Below are positions 5,105-62,027 of a stretch of DNA of 64,000 bases, in pieces. The DNA is taken from the NCBI GenBank assembly GCA_964460605.1, contig CAYWPT010000001.1:33548-97547 (forward strand), written 5' to 3'. Position 1 is the first letter of the stretch; every line of letters begins with the position of its first letter. A program made the translations under genes and the position numbers. The notes beneath the pieces are model-generated. The model made no database searches. It saw only the letters and a list, made by a program, of their open reading frames with translations, and was not told where the DNA came from. Source of the DNA: an uncultured Methanosarcinales archaeon (GTDB lineage: Archaea; Nanobdellota; Nanobdellia; Woesearchaeales; GW2011-AR9).

Positions 5105-6154
5105 TTACTCTTCTTGTGTAACCGCTTCGAAAATAGTTTTCAATTTCGGTTGTGATACATCTAATGTGTTTAATGAAAGATCATTTTGGTCTATATATGA
5201 TAATAACATTTCTGCTGTTTTGTTAAAATTACTTGTCTCAAGAAGGATATGATTTCTTCTATCAATAATTTTGCTTACCGGAAGGTTCTGTACAAACCCT
5301 AACATTTGTTCATGATTTTTCCCAGTTTTTACTGTAATCACACTATCTTTATGCAAATAAGGACCTCTTAAACTATCTAAAGAGCCATTTTCTTGCAACT
5401 GACCTTTATGTAAAATTGCAACTTTATTACAAATCGCTTCAATACTCTCCAAATCGTGTGAAGCCATAACCACAGTGATTCCTTGTTTGTTTACTTCTTT
5501 AATCAAATAAAGGATTTCTCTTTTCAGATGTGGGTCTAAATTCATCACTGGCTCATCTAAAACTAATAATTTTGGTTTATGGATTAAACTACAAGCAATA
5601 TCTAAACGCTTCTGCATACCACCAGATAATTCTTCAGCTAAATAATTTCTATAAGCGTACAAATCTGTAAATTTGAGAAGGTTCATGGCATTTTCTTTAA
5701 GTACAGATTTCTTTAAGCCATACATTTGTCCAAAATGCATAAGGTTTTCCATTACAGACAACTTAGGATAAAATGATAATCCTTGTGGAGTAAAACCAAC
5801 TTTCTTTCTAATATTAAAACCATGATCTTTGAGATCTCTTTTTTTTCCAGTAGAAGTTGTATACTCTACCCTACCACCTTCAAAGTCTAAAAAACCGACA
5901 ATTACATTTAACAAAGTAGATTTCCCACTACCTGAACGTCCAATAACACCGTAGATGTCACCCTCATCAATACTCAAATTTACATTGTCCAAAATTTTCT
6001 TATGAGAGAACCTTTTAGACAAACCATTCACTCCTAACAATTCCACGACAAGATTAAGCTTTTTTTGTTTATAAATGTTTTTACATAGCTTATTGATAAA
6101 ATAACTCTTATCCTCCACAATCTTTAAATACCCTTCAAGAAAAATATGCTCCAA
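5105..6154 (-). CDS. ABC transporter ATP-binding protein
   Basis: Walker A 'GRSGSGKST', signature 'LSGGMQKRL', Walker B 'LLVLDEP'; extra C-terminal domain. Confidence 0.85.
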   Translation of the reverse strand: MEHIFLEGYLKIVEDKSYFINKLCKNIYKQKKLNLVVELLGVNGLSKRFSHKKILDNVNLSIDEGDIYGVIGRSGSGKSTLLNVIVGFLDFEGGRVEYTTSTGKKRDLKDHGFNIRKKVGFTPQGLSFYPKLSVMENLMHFGQMYGLKKSVLKENAMNLLKFTDLYAYRNYLAEELSGGMQKRLDIACSLIHKPKLLVLDEPVMNLDPHLKREILYLIKEVNKQGITVVMASHDLESIEAICNKVAILHKGQLQENGSLDSLRGPYLHKDSVITVKTGKNHEQMLGFVQNLPVSKIIDRRNHILLETSNFNKTAEMLLSYIDQNDLSLNTLDVSQPKLKTIFEAVTQEE

Positions 6155-11534: not shown

Positions 11535-11911
11535 GTGTTAGTGGTAGTAGGGAGCTCACGGGCATTTATGTCTGAGGAAAGTCCACCCACCGCGAAAAGT
11601 GACTTTGTGTAAGCAAAGGGAGAGAAATCTCTGGCTCTGGCGAAGAAACGACACGTCCTTTGAAATGGTACTTAGAAATCTATGATCTCTTGTACCCTAG
11701 AAATTTTTAATTTCTAGAGGAATGATAATAATGGCGAAGCTTTTTTCAATGAAAAGCAAGTTAAATTTTTGACGTCTTCAAAGGGATCGATGAAACGGCG
11801 AAACCTCACTGGTGCAAGTCATTGTGACGCATAGTAGAATGCTTCCACAGCTTATCGACAAGTTTTACTTGTTTTGGAGCTGACAGAAGGTGGCTTATGC
11901 TGCCCTAACAC
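11535..11911 (+). ncRNA. rnpB: RNase P RNA (archaeal type)
   Basis: P4 5' strand 'GAGGAAAGTCCACC' at 11574-11587 and P4 3' strand 'ACAGAAGGTGGCTTA' at 11883-11897; P1 pairing 'GTGTTAG' (11535-41) with 'CTAACAC' (11905-11); 'GAAACGGCG' element inside; ORF-free; ends ~376 nt from its start. Confidence 0.75.
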
Positions 11912-18192: not shown

Positions 18193-18268
18193 ATTTAATC
18201 ATAAAAATAGAAGTTAATAAACTCTGTCCGCACCTGTCCAGTAGACCAGTTAGATTAAAAGAAAAAAG

Positions 18269-18381
18269 TGAGCCTAGTGGGATTCGAACCCACGGTCCCC
18301 GGCTCGCTTCGTAAGAAGTGTCCAGAAGGAACACTTCTCGTATAGAAGGCCGGTGCCCTATCCAGACTAGGCTATAGGCTC
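18269..18381 (-). tRNA. tRNA-Arg (TCT) with 38-nt canonical intron (37/38)
   Basis: acceptor GAGCCTA/TAGGCTC, D-stem GCCT/GGGC, anticodon stem CCGGC/GCCGG, loop C-T-TCT-A then 38-nt insert with internal helix (AGAAGTGT/ACACTTCT) consistent with a BHB intron, T-arm GTGGG-TTCGAAT-CCCAC. Confidence 0.8.
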
Positions 18382-18429: not shown

Positions 18430-19354
18430 TGGTCTGTCCAGAAAGGAATAAAAGTGTATACTGACTTTCGTCAGTTATGACACAAACAAAAATACAGCAT
18501 ACACCAAAGCATAGCTTTCTGACTGAATTAATAAATCTTTACCATGAAATGGACTTCCCATTACATGACAACGACCTCGGTCCCAGAATTTACTCAGAGT
18601 TTCATAAATTCTCATTGGTCGTCTTGTTCAGACGATCAAAGAAAGTTCTGCGTGATTTTATCGCAGAGCTTTATGAGACAAAATGGCCTTCTTGGCTTGA
18701 TTTACGCCAAATTCCAAGTAAAAGTGTTCTTCATAACTGGTGCAAAAAGTACACTGTTGAGTTCTTGCGTGAGCTCAACAGAACTTTTCTTTTAAAAAAA
18801 AAAGTCCAAAATTAATGGCAATTGATGCTACAGGAGTAGATGCACATATACGAAGTAGGCATTATGAGAAGAGAATCAAAGAAAAAGCCAAATTCAACAA
18901 ATTGACCATTTTTATTGATGTAGAAAATATGCTCATTTATGATCATGTCTTGCAAATGATACCAAGACATGATGTTAAAGCTACGGAGACAATATTCCGT
19001 AGAACACACCTTCGTAAGATAAAATCTCTGGGTGATAAAGGATATGATAGTGAGCCACTTCATGAAGTGGCTCTAAGTAGGCAGAATACTTTGTTTGCAC
19101 CAGTTAGAAAAAGCTCACGAGCTAACCCAAAAGGTTGGAATAGAAGAAGATGTGCTCAAGGAGATGAGGATTATAACAAAAGAGCACATGTGGAAAGCTG
19201 TATCCACAGCTTAAAGAGAAGGAGAATACCAATTCTACGTAGTAAGCTCCACTATATGAAGAAAAGAGAAATGGCTCTTCAGATACTCATTCACAATATT
19301 GAGAAAATGAAGAACATACTGAGAATGATGTTCTACATCATTCTGGACAGACCA
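18430..19354 (+). mobile_element. insertion sequence (~0.92 kb) with 14-bp terminal inverted repeats and two-ORF transposase (IS5-family IS427-like or IS1-like organisation)
   Basis: IRL TGGTCTGTCCAGAA (18430-18443) and IRR TTCTGGACAGACCA (19341-19354) form a perfect inverted repeat; orfA/orfB overlap after an A10 run; 'GDKGYDS' DDE-type motif in orfB. Confidence 0.7.
18477..18815 (+). CDS. IS transposase OrfA (N-terminal DNA-binding part)
   Basis: 112 aa, ends TAA at 18813-15 just after the slippery A10 run (18794-18803). Confidence 0.6.
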   Translation: MTQTKIQHTPKHSFLTELINLYHEMDFPLHDNDLGPRIYSEFHKFSLVVLFRRSKKVLRDFIAELYETKWPSWLDLRQIPSKSVLHNWCKKYTVEFLRELNRTFLLKKKVQN

Positions 19355-19384
19355 CAAAAAAATAGCCTTAACTATTATTTATAG
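18815..19384 (+). CDS. IS transposase OrfB (DDE catalytic part), -1 frame relative to OrfA
   Basis: 'AIDATGVD' and 'LGDKGYDSEPL' DDE transposase motifs; the ORF reads through IRR and stops 30 nt into flanking DNA. Confidence 0.7.
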   Translation: MAIDATGVDAHIRSRHYEKRIKEKAKFNKLTIFIDVENMLIYDHVLQMIPRHDVKATETIFRRTHLRKIKSLGDKGYDSEPLHEVALSRQNTLFAPVRKSSRANPKGWNRRRCAQGDEDYNKRAHVESCIHSLKRRRIPILRSKLHYMKKREMALQILIHNIEKMKNILRMMFYIILDRPQKNSLNYYL

Positions 19385-54743: not shown

Positions 54744-55106
54744 ATGGATGATTTAAGAGAAATTGCACTGATGACTTCGAGAGAGTTTGCATCGTATCTA
54801 AGTGCTCATGAAACTAATAGAGTTGCCTTTTGTAGAGAACACCATCCAAAATTTGGAATAAGTCGATCAAGTTTACAAATTATTCTCAGAAATCTTGAAC
54901 AGGGACACGCATATACATATTTACCAAAGGGAAATGGCCAGAATGGTCCACGCCATAGTAGGAGCAGCCCAAAAGAGAGAAAAATAAGACTAAAAAGGTT
55001 AGCAGTCCTTTATGAAACTCTAGGGCTTGAAAGTGATAATGAGTTGGTAGAAAAAGTTGCTGAGCGTTGGCCAGAGTTTAATGATTATTATTCTCAAGCA
55101 AAGTAG
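54744..55106 (+). CDS. hypothetical protein
   Basis: ORF with no motif I recognise; convergent 29-nt overlap with the next gene. Confidence 0.3.
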   Translation: MDDLREIALMTSREFASYLSAHETNRVAFCREHHPKFGISRSSLQIILRNLEQGHAYTYLPKGNGQNGPRHSRSSPKERKIRLKRLAVLYETLGLESDNELVEKVAERWPEFNDYYSQAK

Positions 55107-57198
55107 CTTTTTTTATCTTCAAGTAAGCTGAATTGTTATCTTCTACAATTTCTGCTTCTTCTATTTTGATTTCTTTTTTGAATAATGGGCAGTTTAAGGT
55201 TAATGATTCGAACTCTCCCCCTTCTCCGGCGATGTTTACTCCTAGGTCTTTGTTGAGTTGTTCTAGTTTGTTTACGTCTTCTTGTGTGATGACTTTGTTG
55301 AGCCAATCTTTATTGAGTCCTTCTGCTGCAACTACTGTTAAAATAATTTTGTAATTGTTACTTAGTACTTCTTGCATATGTTGTAGCTGAGATTTATGCC
55401 ATAATGGTGAAAATACTTTGAGGTTGAGGGATTCTGCGATTGCTTCTATTCGATCTCTTTGGTATCTTGAGAAAAGAGCACCAGTAACAATACCACCAAT
55501 ATTGTAATGCTCTTTTGCTTTTTGGATTGCTTTTTTTAGGTCTTCGAGTTCTTCTTCTTTGTTTCCCATTGTTGTTTGAGTGATAATAGGAATATCCATA
55601 GCTTCTGCTTGTAAGTCAGTTAATTCAGTTCCTGCAGTTTGAAACATGTAAGAAAAAGGGTTTTTGCTTTTCATAGTAATAAGACATGCTAATTGGTAAT
55701 TTTGCTCTTTCATGATTTGTGCAGCTCGTGTTGAGTCTTTTCCAGAAGAGAAGAGTACTCCTAATTTGAGATTGTGTTTTGGATAGAAGGTTCTCAGGTA
55801 TGCTGATTTGCTTGAAAAGTCATTTTGTTTTGCTAACTTTTGGATTGCACTATCGAATCTTGATCCATATTGTGCAGCTTTCTTTTTTCTCCAAGCGAAT
55901 TCTTTGCTGATTCCTTTTTCTTCAGCAATTTCTCTTAGAATGACTTTTCCAAAATCTTCGTTGAGTTTGTATTGTTCTGGAATTTTTAAAGCGTATTCTA
56001 CTAGTTCTTTATCTAAGAAAGGTAATCTTAATTCTAAGTTATTATCCATGGTTAAGACATCATCTCGATATAAGTCTCTTTCATAGATTTTTCTCAAACC
56101 AGCTAAGCATTCTTCATTAATATGATTTGCTTGTCTGTGCCTTTGATAGCCTGCGAAAATTTCCTCACTGCCTAAGCCTGAGAAGATGACTTTGTTTCCG
56201 TCTTTTTTAGCTGCTTGAGCTGCTAGGTAGAAGGTTAATGCAACGCCAACTTTTACTACGTTACTATCTTCAATTAAAGGGACAATGTGTTTGAGGTATT
56301 GAGGTATTTCTTCTTGTTTTATCTTAATTATCTTATGATTAAGCTTGAGTTCCTCTGCAACTTTGATTGCTGGCGCGAGATCTGCTGGTTCAGCATGTTC
56401 AGTATCTAAAACTGCAGTATAAGCTGTGAAATCTACTCCTTTTTCTTTGAGAGTCTTAGCTATGAATGTAGAGTCAATGCCTCCACTGAAAAGAAGAGCC
56501 ACTTGTTTTTCAGGTATACGTTTTTGGATTGCAGAATCTAATAATTCTTTAGTTTTAAGCTTAATTTCTTCTTTTTCTTGACTGTGTTCTGGTTTTGTTG
56601 TGAAGAAACCTTGTTCCTCTTTTTTGAGGGTTTTAGCTTGAGTATCGTAGTATAAAATAGTTCTTGGGTTTAATTCTTGGATATCAAGGTAATTTAAAGA
56701 TTCTAAGACTTTAGCTTCTGAGCTGAAAGCGAAAGTGTCTTTGTTCCATGAGAAATGAAGGGGTTTAACGCCGATAAGATCCCTTGCTAAGGCTATTGTA
56801 TTTCCTTTCCAGTAAGCGAAAGCGTAAACACCATCAAGTTCGTTTAATTTGTTTGTGTAGAACTTGTCTAAGAATTTAAGCAAAAGTTCAGCATCGTTTG
56901 TTGCTTCTAGTTGGTATTTTTCGGCTAATTCCTTCCAATTATAGATCTCGCAATTGGCAACTAAAGTTCCTTCTCCTTTGAGTGGTTGCGGGCTGTTTCC
57001 TACCACTGCATGCAAGGTGTGTCCTAGGATTGTGTTTCCACTCAATGTGTGTAATTCATTTGAACTTTTAGCTGTGATTATTTCAGTTCCGTTGGTGAGT
57101 CCACAGGCATCTTTTCCTCTGTTTTGTAATAAAGCTAAAGCTTCTTTTACTTCTTGTTTAGCTTTCTCTTTTCCAACAATACCAATGATTCCACACAT
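55078..57198 (-). CDS. asnB: asparagine synthetase (glutamine-hydrolysing) fused to a C-terminal Dph6-like (DUF71, diphthine-ammonia-ligase-type) PP-loop domain
   Basis: N-terminal 'MCGIIG' Ntn glutaminase; AsnB PP-loop 'LFSGGIDSTF'; C-terminal ~230 aa with 'LFSSGKDSTRAAQ', 'LQAEAMDIPII', 'GIVTGALFSRYQRDRIEAIAESLNLKVFSPLW', 'EGGEFESLTLNCPLFKK' matching the Dph6/DUF71 family. Confidence 0.8.
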   Translation of the reverse strand: MCGIIGIVGKEKAKQEVKEALALLQNRGKDACGLTNGTEIITAKSSNELHTLSGNTILGHTLHAVVGNSPQPLKGEGTLVANCEIYNWKELAEKYQLEATNDAELLLKFLDKFYTNKLNELDGVYAFAYWKGNTIALARDLIGVKPLHFSWNKDTFAFSSEAKVLESLNYLDIQELNPRTILYYDTQAKTLKKEEQGFFTTKPEHSQEKEEIKLKTKELLDSAIQKRIPEKQVALLFSGGIDSTFIAKTLKEKGVDFTAYTAVLDTEHAEPADLAPAIKVAEELKLNHKIIKIKQEEIPQYLKHIVPLIEDSNVVKVGVALTFYLAAQAAKKDGNKVIFSGLGSEEIFAGYQRHRQANHINEECLAGLRKIYERDLYRDDVLTMDNNLELRLPFLDKELVEYALKIPEQYKLNEDFGKVILREIAEEKGISKEFAWRKKKAAQYGSRFDSAIQKLAKQNDFSSKSAYLRTFYPKHNLKLGVLFSSGKDSTRAAQIMKEQNYQLACLITMKSKNPFSYMFQTAGTELTDLQAEAMDIPIITQTTMGNKEEELEDLKKAIQKAKEHYNIGGIVTGALFSRYQRDRIEAIAESLNLKVFSPLWHKSQLQHMQEVLSNNYKIILTVVAAEGLNKDWLNKVITQEDVNKLEQLNKDLGVNIAGEGGEFESLTLNCPLFKKEIKIEEAEIVEDNNSAYLKIKKATLLENNNH

Positions 57199-60313: not shown

Positions 60314-60850
60314 ATGACGCCATTTATTGAGCTCATTAAAAGTTACTTTTACCAAATCATTGTAGGATTTATTATGCTCCTTATTGGTTTTGGATTAGGA
60401 GTATTAGCAAAAAAATTCAGTAAGAAAGGACTCAAAGAGTTAGGTTTTAATAGAATTCTAAGAATTATTAACCTTCCTTATAATGGAGAAGAAATTATCA
60501 GTTCTTTATTATCTTACATTATTTATTTGATCACTGTTATCTTTTTCCTACAACAATTAGGAATCACCAGTATTGTACTTTACTTAGTTTTAGGAGCTGT
60601 GCTTATGATTATCACTTTAAGCTTTGTAGTAGGACTTAAAGATGTGGTTCCAAACTTTATTGCAGGATTAATCATTAAGAGTAAAGAACATATGAAAGCG
60701 GGTCACAGAGTAGATGTGAAAGAGATCCATGGACGTATTGAAAAGATTGGTTATTTGGAAACTGAAATTAAAACAGTACATGGAGATATTTTGTATGTTC
60801 CGAACACTTTATTCATTAAATCAAAAGTATTGCTTAGAAAAAAGGATTAA
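60314..60850 (+). CDS. small MscS-like mechanosensitive channel protein
   Basis: 3 TMs plus conserved 'GHRVDVKEIHGRIEKIGYLETEIKTVHGDILYVPN' beta-domain. Confidence 0.55.
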   Translation: MTPFIELIKSYFYQIIVGFIMLLIGFGLGVLAKKFSKKGLKELGFNRILRIINLPYNGEEIISSLLSYIIYLITVIFFLQQLGITSIVLYLVLGAVLMIITLSFVVGLKDVVPNFIAGLIIKSKEHMKAGHRVDVKEIHGRIEKIGYLETEIKTVHGDILYVPNTLFIKSKVLLRKKD

Positions 60851-61089
60851 GCACGCATTCCTTCTAAACTAGAAATAACATCCCATAACATTGTTTTAAT
60901 GTAAGAAGGTACGCCTTTGTTGTTGATATCTTCTAATTCTAAAATTGCTTTTTCAACACGTAAAGATTCTTCTTCTTCTTCTTTGAGAATTTTAACAACT
61001 TTATCAATATCTTCTTTTAGTTTTTTACTAGCATCTTGATCTTCTTTGATCATTTGTAATGCTTCAAAAATTTCTTCGTCAATTTGCAT
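60847..61089 (-). CDS. hypothetical acidic helical protein downstream of pfdB
   Basis: ORF only; start taken at the Met after the pfdB stop. Confidence 0.3.
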   Translation of the reverse strand: MQIDEEIFEALQMIKEDQDASKKLKEDIDKVVKILKEEEEESLRVEKAILELEDINNKGVPSYIKTMLWDVISSLEGMRA

Positions 61090-61090
61090 C

Positions 61091-61405
61091 TTATTTAATT
61101 TTCTTCTCTGGAATTGCATCTTTTTGCAAATCAGTGATAGATTTCTTTAAAGTTTCTTCTTGTTGCTCAATAGTCACTTTTCTTGTATCAAGAACTTTTT
61201 TTCTTTCCTCTAAATCTTTGATTAAACTTTCCTTATTTTTAGAGATCATTAATTTTCCCACAATTTTGTAAGTTTGAGTGCTTGATGGAAGTTCTTTTAG
61301 TGCAGAATCAAGTTCTAGAATTTCTTGCTGTACTTGCTGCTTTTGCATCATGTACTGCTGAAGATTTTGTTGCAATAATTGTAATTGCATAATACTATCT
61401 GACAT
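61091..61405 (-). CDS. pfdB: prefoldin beta subunit
   Basis: Q-rich coiled coils flanking a beta-hairpin 'TYKIVGKLMISKNKE'; 104 aa. Confidence 0.75.
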   Translation of the reverse strand: MSDSIMQLQLLQQNLQQYMMQKQQVQQEILELDSALKELPSSTQTYKIVGKLMISKNKESLIKDLEERKKVLDTRKVTIEQQEETLKKSITDLQKDAIPEKKIK

Positions 61406-61464: not shown

Positions 61465-61599
61465 TTATCTTGCTTTTACCTTAGCAGACGTTGATCTTGT
61501 CTTATGGACCATCTTGCCACCGCAGTAAGGGCATCTAACTCTTGTTGCAGTGTATTCTTCGTCCACTTTTTTGTCGCAATGAAAGCATTTATATTCCAT
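61465..61599 (-). CDS. rpoP: DNA-directed RNA polymerase subunit P (RpoP/Rpb12), 44 aa; missing from the ORF track
   Basis: I translated 'MEYKCFHCDKKVDEEYTATRVRCPYCGGKMVHKTRSTSAKVKAR*', a CxxC...CxxC zinc ribbon with the RpoP 'YKC..C' start; conserved position next to L37ae. Confidence 0.75.
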   Translation of the reverse strand: MEYKCFHCDKKVDEEYTATRVRCPYCGGKMVHKTRSTSAKVKAR

Positions 61600-61600
61600 T

Positions 61601-61798
61601 TTATTTAACTGTGTATGCCTTACCAGTAAACTTGTTCAAGCATTTTCTACATTCCCAAATTCCAACTGCTAATCTTTTAACAGCATCTTTGTTACAATGA
61701 GGACACTTATGTTTTCTCCTCTGTTCAGCTTCGATCTTAGCAAAAGACTTCTTAGGTCTTCTCCCATATCTTGCTCCAAATCTTTTTACTGATGACAT
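61601..61798 (-). CDS. rpl37ae: 50S ribosomal protein L37Ae (eL43)
   Basis: 'FGARYGRRPKK...KCPHCNK..VKRLAVGIWECRKC' C4 zinc ribbon. Confidence 0.9.
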   Translation of the reverse strand: MSSVKRFGARYGRRPKKSFAKIEAEQRRKHKCPHCNKDAVKRLAVGIWECRKCLNKFTGKAYTVK

Positions 61799-61820: not shown

Positions 61821-61934
61821 TGGTGGGGCTGCCCGGATTTGAACCGGGGTTATACGGTCCCAAACCGTAAGTGATAGATTGCCTAAAGGCATTTTAAGCG
61901 TAAAATAACCCTTACCAGGCTACACTACAGCTCC
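61821..61934 (-). tRNA. tRNA-Pro (TGG) candidate with ~36-nt insertion in the D-loop region (putative non-canonical intron) and genomically encoded CCA
   Basis: unambiguous 3' half: anticodon arm TACGG-TTTGGGA-CCGTA, V-loop TAAC, T-arm CCCGG-TTCAAAT-CCGGG, acceptor CAGCCCC-A-CCA; 5' half GGAGCTG-TA-GTGT-AGCCTGG... is separated from the D-stem 3' strand (TCAC) by an insert that folds as two hairpins. Confidence 0.5.
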
Positions 61935-62027
61935 ACAATGATTCATTTATAAAGATTGTGTTGATTTTCTCTTGAAATCTTTATAATTCGACAGGAAGCC
62001 TTCCTGTTTAAAAGATTTATGGTAATT

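Follow-up and report, generated by a model that had tools for sequence, protein, structure and literature searches.

Short introns in the D-loop of archaeal tRNA genes, bordered by relaxed HBh′-type motifs, have been reported before (PMC5829648). One of the closest described systems is the pre-tRNA-Glu(UUC) of Methanopyrus kandleri, which likewise carries a short D-loop intron, at position 20b/21, within a relaxed HBh′-type motif, and RNA-seq data from this organism contain mature tRNA-Glu, indicating that the intron is removed in vivo (PMC5829648). The locus that we describe here differs from it in encoding tRNA-Pro instead of tRNA-Glu and in having its predicted splice site, 19/20, one to three residues earlier. 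The M. kandleri gene moreover holds a canonical intron as well and belongs to a hyperthermophilic euryarchaeon whose (αβ)2 EndA is loop-less (PMC5829648). A non-canonical D-loop intron is likewise found in the pre-tRNA-Thr(UGU) of Aeropyrum pernix and has been spliced experimentally by (αβ)2 EndA (as cited in PMC5829648; PMC3241643), so D-loop motifs resembling a bulge–helix–bulge (BHB) are real EndA substrates. That system is crenarchaeal, however, and depends for recognition on a Crenarchaea-specific loop (L1), which is reportedly absent from DPANN EndAs.

Two further systems are close in lineage or in isoacceptor. ARMAN-2 (Micrarchaeum), also a DPANN archaeon, has relaxed (hBH) introns at non-canonical positions in its tRNA genes, tRNA-Pro included, but these lie at 53/54 and 59/60 in the T-loop, and the organism uses a three-unit ε2 EndA with an L2 loop (PMC3239211). 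The same isoacceptor as here, tRNA-Pro(UGG), is interrupted in Pyrobaculum islandicum (Thermoproteales) by BHB-type introns at 25/26, 37/38 and 56/57 (PMC4090602). The introns of Thermoproteales are thought to be recent and spread by transposition (PMC4090602), whereas the present case involves a single intron, at one site and in one syntenic locus, across deep divergence. Outside the supplementary tables of PMC5829648, which may list the intron for Woesearchaeota or Pacearchaeota, our literature search returned no paper describing this tRNA-Pro intron.

The window, by which we mean the whole stretch of 64,000 nucleotides that was analysed, has a G+C content of 33% and contains, on its minus strand at 61821..61934, a tRNA-Pro(UGG) gene made up of exon 1, a predicted intron, exon 2 and an encoded CCA. 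Read along that strand, the gene is GGAGCUG-UA-GUGU-AGCCUGG-[UAAGGGUUAUUUUACGCUUAAAAUGCCUUUAGGCAA]-UCUA-UCAC-U-UACGG-UUUGGGA-CCGUA-UAAC-CCCGG-UUCAAAU-CCGGG-CAGCCCC-A-CCA. The Rfam tRNA model RF00005 matched 61824-61934 (-) over its full length, positions 1-71 of 71, with 45.7 bits, above the gathering score of 29 and at E = 1.5e-6 over the whole window, leaving 44 nt of the D-loop unaligned. The earlier note, made from the sequence alone, had described a tRNA-Pro(UGG)-like gene with an insert of about 36 nt in the D-loop, and this description agrees with the Rfam match and with an insert at 61879-61914. Exon 1 (pre-tRNA 1-20; 61915..61934, minus strand), delimited by the BHB rule and by an intron-less ortholog described below, comprises the 5′ acceptor strand, U8 A9, the 5′ strand of the D-stem (GUGU) and the D-loop AGCCUGG through G19. 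Exon 2 (pre-tRNA 57-114; 61821..61878, minus strand) supplies the rest of the D-loop, UCUA, together with the 3′ strand of the D-stem, the anticodon arm, a 4-nt variable loop, the T arm, the 3′ acceptor strand, A73 and CCA. The anticodon UGG (pre-tRNA 73-75; 61860..61862, minus strand) is followed by G37 and sits in a 7-nt loop, UUUGGGA, in which U33 and G37 are present; the discriminator is A73.

Two exon features that had also been pointed out at the outset were borne out by the analysis. CCA is encoded at 61821-61823 and is absent from the three remaining tRNA genes of the window, those for Cys, Arg(UCU) and Leu(CAA). A3 (61932) faces C70 (61827), a mismatch that leaves the acceptor stem without its full seven standard pairs; pair 3-70 is G-C in 17 of the 20 aligned genes. 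We observed the combination of A3·C70 with an encoded CCA in only one other gene, L046 (Ga0233437_1000039; 5626-5726, minus strand), whose intron is different and 45 nt long. Because the mismatch recurs there beside a different intron, it is inherited and not a sequencing error. The tRNA locus was base-for-base identical in four further assemblies from different samples and is therefore no assembly artefact.

ARAGORN called no gene at 61821-61934 on the unspliced window, with or without its intron option, which covers anticodon-loop introns only. When the predicted 36-nt intron, UAAGGGUUAUUUUACGCUUAAAAUGCCUUUAGGCAA (pre-tRNA 21-56; 61879..61914, minus strand), was deleted in silico, the program called tRNA-Pro(tgg), which is the outcome expected if the insert is a non-canonical D-loop intron, as had been proposed. 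In standard tRNA numbering the intron sits between D-loop residues G19 and U20, and cutting it out leaves AGCCUGG-UCUA as the D-loop. Shifting both cuts one base later would give the same mature sequence, because the first intron base and the first base of exon 2 are both U. We placed the junction by the BHB rule, that is, with the cut after the second bulge nucleotide, and with the help of the intron-less ortholog L071. A review states that the first two anticodon bases sit within the 4-bp central helix (PMC4090602), from which we infer that the second base of each 3-nt bulge is the last one before the EndA cut.

The predicted junction contains most elements of a BHB motif. The 5′ strand of the central helix H is formed by G15 C16 C17 U17a (pre-tRNA 15-18; 61917..61920, minus strand) and its 3′ strand by A51 G52 G53 C54 at the 3′ end of the intron (61881..61884, minus strand); all four pairs of this helix, GCCU:AGGC, can form in the window, each with an ensemble probability of about 0.4. 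The 5′ splice-site bulge has 3 nt, G19 G20/U21 (tRNA G18 G19 plus the first intron base; 61914..61916, minus strand). It is followed by the intron helix h′, in which A22-U27 (61908..61913, minus strand) and G45-U50 (61885..61890, minus strand) form six contiguous pairs. An apical hairpin, AUUUUA-CGCU-UAAAAU (pre-tRNA 29-44; 61891..61906, minus strand), caps h′ in both the minimum-energy and the centroid folds and shows no conservation among relatives. The earlier note had drawn the insert as two hairpins; this one stands in the minimum-energy fold, but the other, GCC-UUUA-GGC, is probably not the relevant pairing, because the comparative data pair G45-U50 with A22-U27 and A51-C54 with G15-U18. 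The 3′ splice-site bulge, A55 A56/U57, is followed by C58 opposite A14 (61877..61880, minus strand) and can be drawn either as a 3-nt bulge with a mismatch or as a 4-nt bulge. The outer helix at this site has none of its three pairs in strict register; with a 4-nt bulge, either 3 bp (A14-U59, U13-A60 and G12·U61) or the D-stem can form. As the exon-side helix at the 3′ site is missing in strict register, we class the window motif as relaxed HBh′ and not as strict hBHBh′. With an outer helix of 0/3 and a non-canonical 3′ site, a strict α4 EndA might therefore not cut it.

The motif in the window is not convincing on its own, because a loosely defined HBh′ can be found somewhere in the region for 72% of shuffled introns. 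In the window register, only 14 of 200,000 shuffled introns reached H = 4/4 together with at least six h′ pairs. About 40% of the computed ensemble adopts the BHB conformer, whose energy is about 4-5 kcal/mol higher than that of the minimum-energy fold; the two differ mainly in that H is slid in the latter. We conclude that the HBh′ motif carries meaning only when its register is set by the tRNA and by comparisons with related genes.

Relatives were found by pattern scans of GTDB genomes, which gave a Woesearchaeota MAG (L023), and of metagenome contigs, which gave many more; one locus (L076) came from an L37Ae look-up. We identified 22 distinct genes with an insert directly after the D-loop GG, namely the window gene and 21 others that are Woesearchaeota-like. 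The insert of the Woesearchaeota MAG has 36 nt and occupies the same site, and its sequence is unrelated to the window intron. Across the family, inserts range from 16 nt (L034) to 47 nt, are unrelated in sequence and mostly end in ...GCAA. Splicing in silico after GG and after the terminal AA produced a tRNA-Pro(tgg) call by ARAGORN in all 21 genes tested (the window and 20 relatives). The 5′ bulge is GG+N, 3 nt, in most of the 21 relatives and 4 nt in two of them (L046 and L052), and the 3′ outer helix forms 3/3 pairs in strict register in 11 of the 20 relatives tested; relatives in which 3 exon bases follow the cut reach 3/3. Bacterial matches were left out of the family, their upstream TAGCCTGG adjoining an ordinary tRNA-Pro, as were Asgard and Methanomethylicia tRNA-Pro genes with inserts at another site. 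We also observed a contig (L064; CEPZ01208310.1, 783-860, plus strand) in which the D-loop intron and the 3′ half are normal but the 5′ acceptor strand, TTTATTG, does not pair with CAATCCC; either the gene is disrupted a second time, near position 3/4, or the copy is decaying.

Covariation at the junction was counted on fixed-length constructs of the window gene and 20 relatives. Of all H and h′ cells in these 21 genes, 89.9% were paired and 51 had changed on both sides; none of 500 shuffles reached the observed pairing, and slid registers gave only 29-55%. Across the relatives, H was 94% paired, with changes on both sides at two of its four pairs (C17-G to U17-A and C16-G to U16-A), and h′ was 86.7% paired, with such changes at all five pairs tested; as the relatives' 3′ boundaries were set by eye from ...GCAA, the procedure favours the counts for H but not those for h′. 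The expectation that the junctions could form a relaxed BHB thus fits what we found in the window, with H complete, a 3-nt 5′ bulge, a 6-bp h′ and a loose 3′ side, and the motif covaries over 21 genes.

The neighbourhood of the gene is conserved along with it. In the window, an L37Ae gene (61601..61798, minus strand) begins 22 nt downstream of CCA, and genes for RpoP (61465-61599), prefoldin β (61091-61405) and UPF0147 (60847-61119) belong to the same conserved neighbourhood, all four named by Pfam labels. In most related loci, tRNA-Pro lies immediately upstream of L37Ae, RpoP, prefoldin β and UPF0147, and L37Ae identity across these loci runs from 84% down to 45%. Judged from sequence and gene order, the related tRNA-Pro loci are orthologous. 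The closest L37Ae homologs are labelled by their sources as Candidatus Woesearchaeota, Nanoarchaeia or Nanoarchaeota. We observed that many L37Ae homologs of the clade are called at about 100-105 aa, compared with 65 aa in the window, and that at least in one locus (L074, 1501-1815) no tRNA lies upstream of a long L37Ae; some lineages may truly have the N-terminal extension, and in others it may be an over-call.

One lineage carries the gene uninterrupted. At the same syntenic site, L071, L072 and L073 have an intron-less tRNA-Pro(UGG), GGGGCUGUAGUGUAGCUUGG-UUUAUCAU..., which scores 53.2 bits, beside an L37Ae that is 64% identical. The D-loop of L071, AGCUUGG-UUUA, is the very junction predicted for the splice in the window. 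In a rough neighbour-joining tree of L37Ae, RpoP and prefoldin (about 200 aa), this intron-less lineage falls among intron-bearing ones, a placement that tentatively suggests precise intron loss in the L071 lineage, given that the tree is built on only about 200 residues.

Taking these results together, we consider it roughly 85% probable that 61821-61934 is a functional tRNA-Pro(UGG) gene of a tiny marine Woesearchaeota-like DPANN archaeon, interrupted by a non-canonical 19/20 intron that is presumably removed by EndA. The pattern is unlike that of a tRNA-Pro pseudogene or remnant, inactivated by the 36-nt insertion and no longer used, although ARAGORN made no call at the locus and the A3·C70 mismatch weakens the acceptor stem, as would suit a decaying gene. 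In the spliced exon cloverleaf of 20 genes, 95% of stem cells are paired, both sides have changed at 14 pairs, and pairing reaches 100% in the anticodon and T stems. Stem complementarity has thus been kept among the orthologs, under purifying selection, and compensatory changes occur in all four exon stems, which contradicts the pseudogene alternative named in the earlier note and excludes a decaying pseudogene. Down to 45% L37Ae identity, the relatives also keep the position of the insert, the helices at its junctions and the neighbouring genes, and the mismatch itself is shared with L046, whose intron differs. Inactivation by the insertion is, on these grounds, extremely unlikely.

The remaining alternatives concern the fate of the insert. 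It could stay in the mature tRNA as an expanded D-loop with an extra stem-loop, and a stable stem-loop able to protrude from the D-loop does exist; but the conserved pairing uses up G15-U17a and places G18 G19 in a bulge. Mature tRNAs need D-loop residues G15-U17a, G18 and G19 for tertiary contacts. An insert that varies from 16 to 47 nt, conserves no sequence outside the helices and is entirely absent from one syntenic ortholog points to an excised element and not to a functional domain, so we regard retention as highly unlikely. Excision might also proceed without BHB recognition and EndA, for instance by self-splicing or through another RNase. This would accommodate the departure of the 3′ site from the canonical motif and the fact that EndA was not found in the window or the related loci, but an insert of 36 nt, and of only 16 nt in L034, comes nowhere near the size of a group I or II ribozyme, and an Rfam scan of the intron and its region for C/D-box or other RNA families returned only tRNA with an E-value below 0.1. 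The helices that covary, moreover, are exactly H and h′ of a BHB, with 3-nt bulges in most members, and we give a route other than EndA an extremely small chance of being correct.

For an intron removed by EndA, the pathway can be outlined as follows. The transcript would have a 114-nt body with the 36-nt intron between D-loop residues G19 and U20, and in this precursor G15-U17a would pair with AGGC, the last four helix-forming bases of the intron, to give the 4-bp central helix. The 5′ cut would fall within the clean 3-nt bulge G18 G19/U, closed by the 6-bp intron helix, and the 3′ cut within the looser bulge A A/U, followed by the A14·C mismatch or drawn as a 4-nt bulge, in an HBh′-type relaxed motif. 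From established archaeal tRNA splicing, EndA would be expected to cleave both bulges and an RtcB-type ligase to join the exons. The product would be a mature tRNA with the normal D-loop AGCCUGGUCUA, and the predicted spliced form has 78 nt with the junction ...AGCCUGG-UCUAUCAC.... The alignments show a tRNA gene under purifying selection, with a covarying relaxed BHB at a fixed site; we infer transcription, cleavage by EndA, ligation and a tolerance of relaxed motifs by the EndA of this lineage.

Neither EndA nor RtcB was present among the Pfam labels of neighbouring genes or in three Pfam scans of 30 window ORFs, and a tblastn search of the window and the related loci with an approximate Methanocaldococcus EndA query gave no match, a result that carries little weight. 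A tRNA-Arg(UCU) gene elsewhere in the window (18268-18381, minus strand) is interrupted at the canonical site, 37/38, by a 38-nt intron, so the genome uses BHB splicing and the machinery for it is implied. In that intron, H (CUUC:GAAG) and the 3′ bulge are canonical and the 5′ site lies in a 5×2 internal loop, not a 3-nt bulge, which hints that the host enzyme tolerates relaxed motifs. A DDE transposase ORF (18815-19384, plus strand) adjoins this gene. DPANN EndAs, α4 types included, carry an L3 insert that has been associated with more disrupted tRNA genes (PMC5829648).

The upstream regions of the tRNA-Pro genes differ with distance from the window. A palindromic TTTATAAA lies 7-11 nt upstream of the mature 5′ end in the window (61946-61953) and in closer relatives (the regions with this proximal palindrome were those of the window, L023, L028, L033, L040, L043, L046, L052, L060 and L067); at this spacing it is too near to serve as the TATA box of a transcript that starts at +1 or earlier. 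More distant relatives (L031, L044, L048, L058, L065 and L066) have a TATA-like box 21-26 nt upstream, the usual archaeal spacing, and a second TATA-like box of the window lies about 45-53 nt upstream (61979-61987). A scan of the locus for bacterial-type promoters and terminators returned nothing useful, the model being bacterial and the host archaeal.

Disruptions of other kinds were seen in other tRNA-Pro genes. In Asgard-type tRNA-Pro(UGG) genes, the complete D arm is followed, at about 26/27, by an insert of about 25-35 nt that forms a hairpin; this non-canonical site differs from the DPANN one, and the insert was seen in L011, L014, L017, L019, L021, L026, L027, L029, L054, L055 and L068 (Promethearchaeota/Thorarchaeota and similar contigs) and looks conserved over several MAGs. 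An internal stretch of about 25 nt, reaching from the D-loop into the anticodon region of tRNA-Pro, is duplicated in tandem in a Gemmatimonadales MAG (L025, 4167-4247, minus strand) and in an unlabelled metagenome contig with a bacterial-type acceptor stem (L056, 828-908, minus strand); the cause is either misassembly or disruption of the gene. Elsewhere in the window we noted an archaeal RNase P RNA (11539-11907, plus strand; 150 bits) of 369 nt, which has several large insertions compared with the 288 positions of the Rfam model, and an ORF of 706 aa (55078-57198, minus strand) that combines glutamine amidotransferase, asparagine synthase and Diphthami_syn_2 (diphthamide-synthase-like) domains in an unusual fusion.

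The tRNA-Pro(UGG) intron is a solid, though not a surprising, case of a known phenomenon and leaves knowledge of the mechanism unchanged. Its modest addition is breadth of conservation at one syntenic locus, a junction fixed by an intron-less ortholog and a DPANN tRNA gene that standard finders miss. Since they miss the gene, genomes of this lineage would appear to be without tRNA-Pro(UGG). The tRNA sets of DPANN genomes are often incomplete, which points to undetected disrupted genes (PMC5829648), and the window gene is a concrete, well-supported case of one. The 22 intron-bearing orthologs, together with the intron-less one, form a natural series for the evolution of relaxed BHB motifs and for the substrate range of DPANN EndA.

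A broader and doubtful reading, which we put forward only tentatively, is that the 19/20 intron of tRNA-Pro(UGG) is ancient and has been vertically inherited in a large Woesearchaeota/Nanoarchaeia clade, held at one syntenic locus despite complete turnover of its sequence, with occasional precise loss as in the L071 lineage. If true, this would contrast with the view, based on Thermoproteales, of non-canonical introns as recent and mobile. The conserved A3·C70 mismatch and the encoded CCA in the sub-lineage of the window could then hint at an extra repair or editing step. The broader reading would also imply selection for the interruption itself, for example through intron-dependent modification, gene protection or quality control, and a DPANN EndA (α4 with the L3 loop) for which relaxed motifs are dependable substrates.
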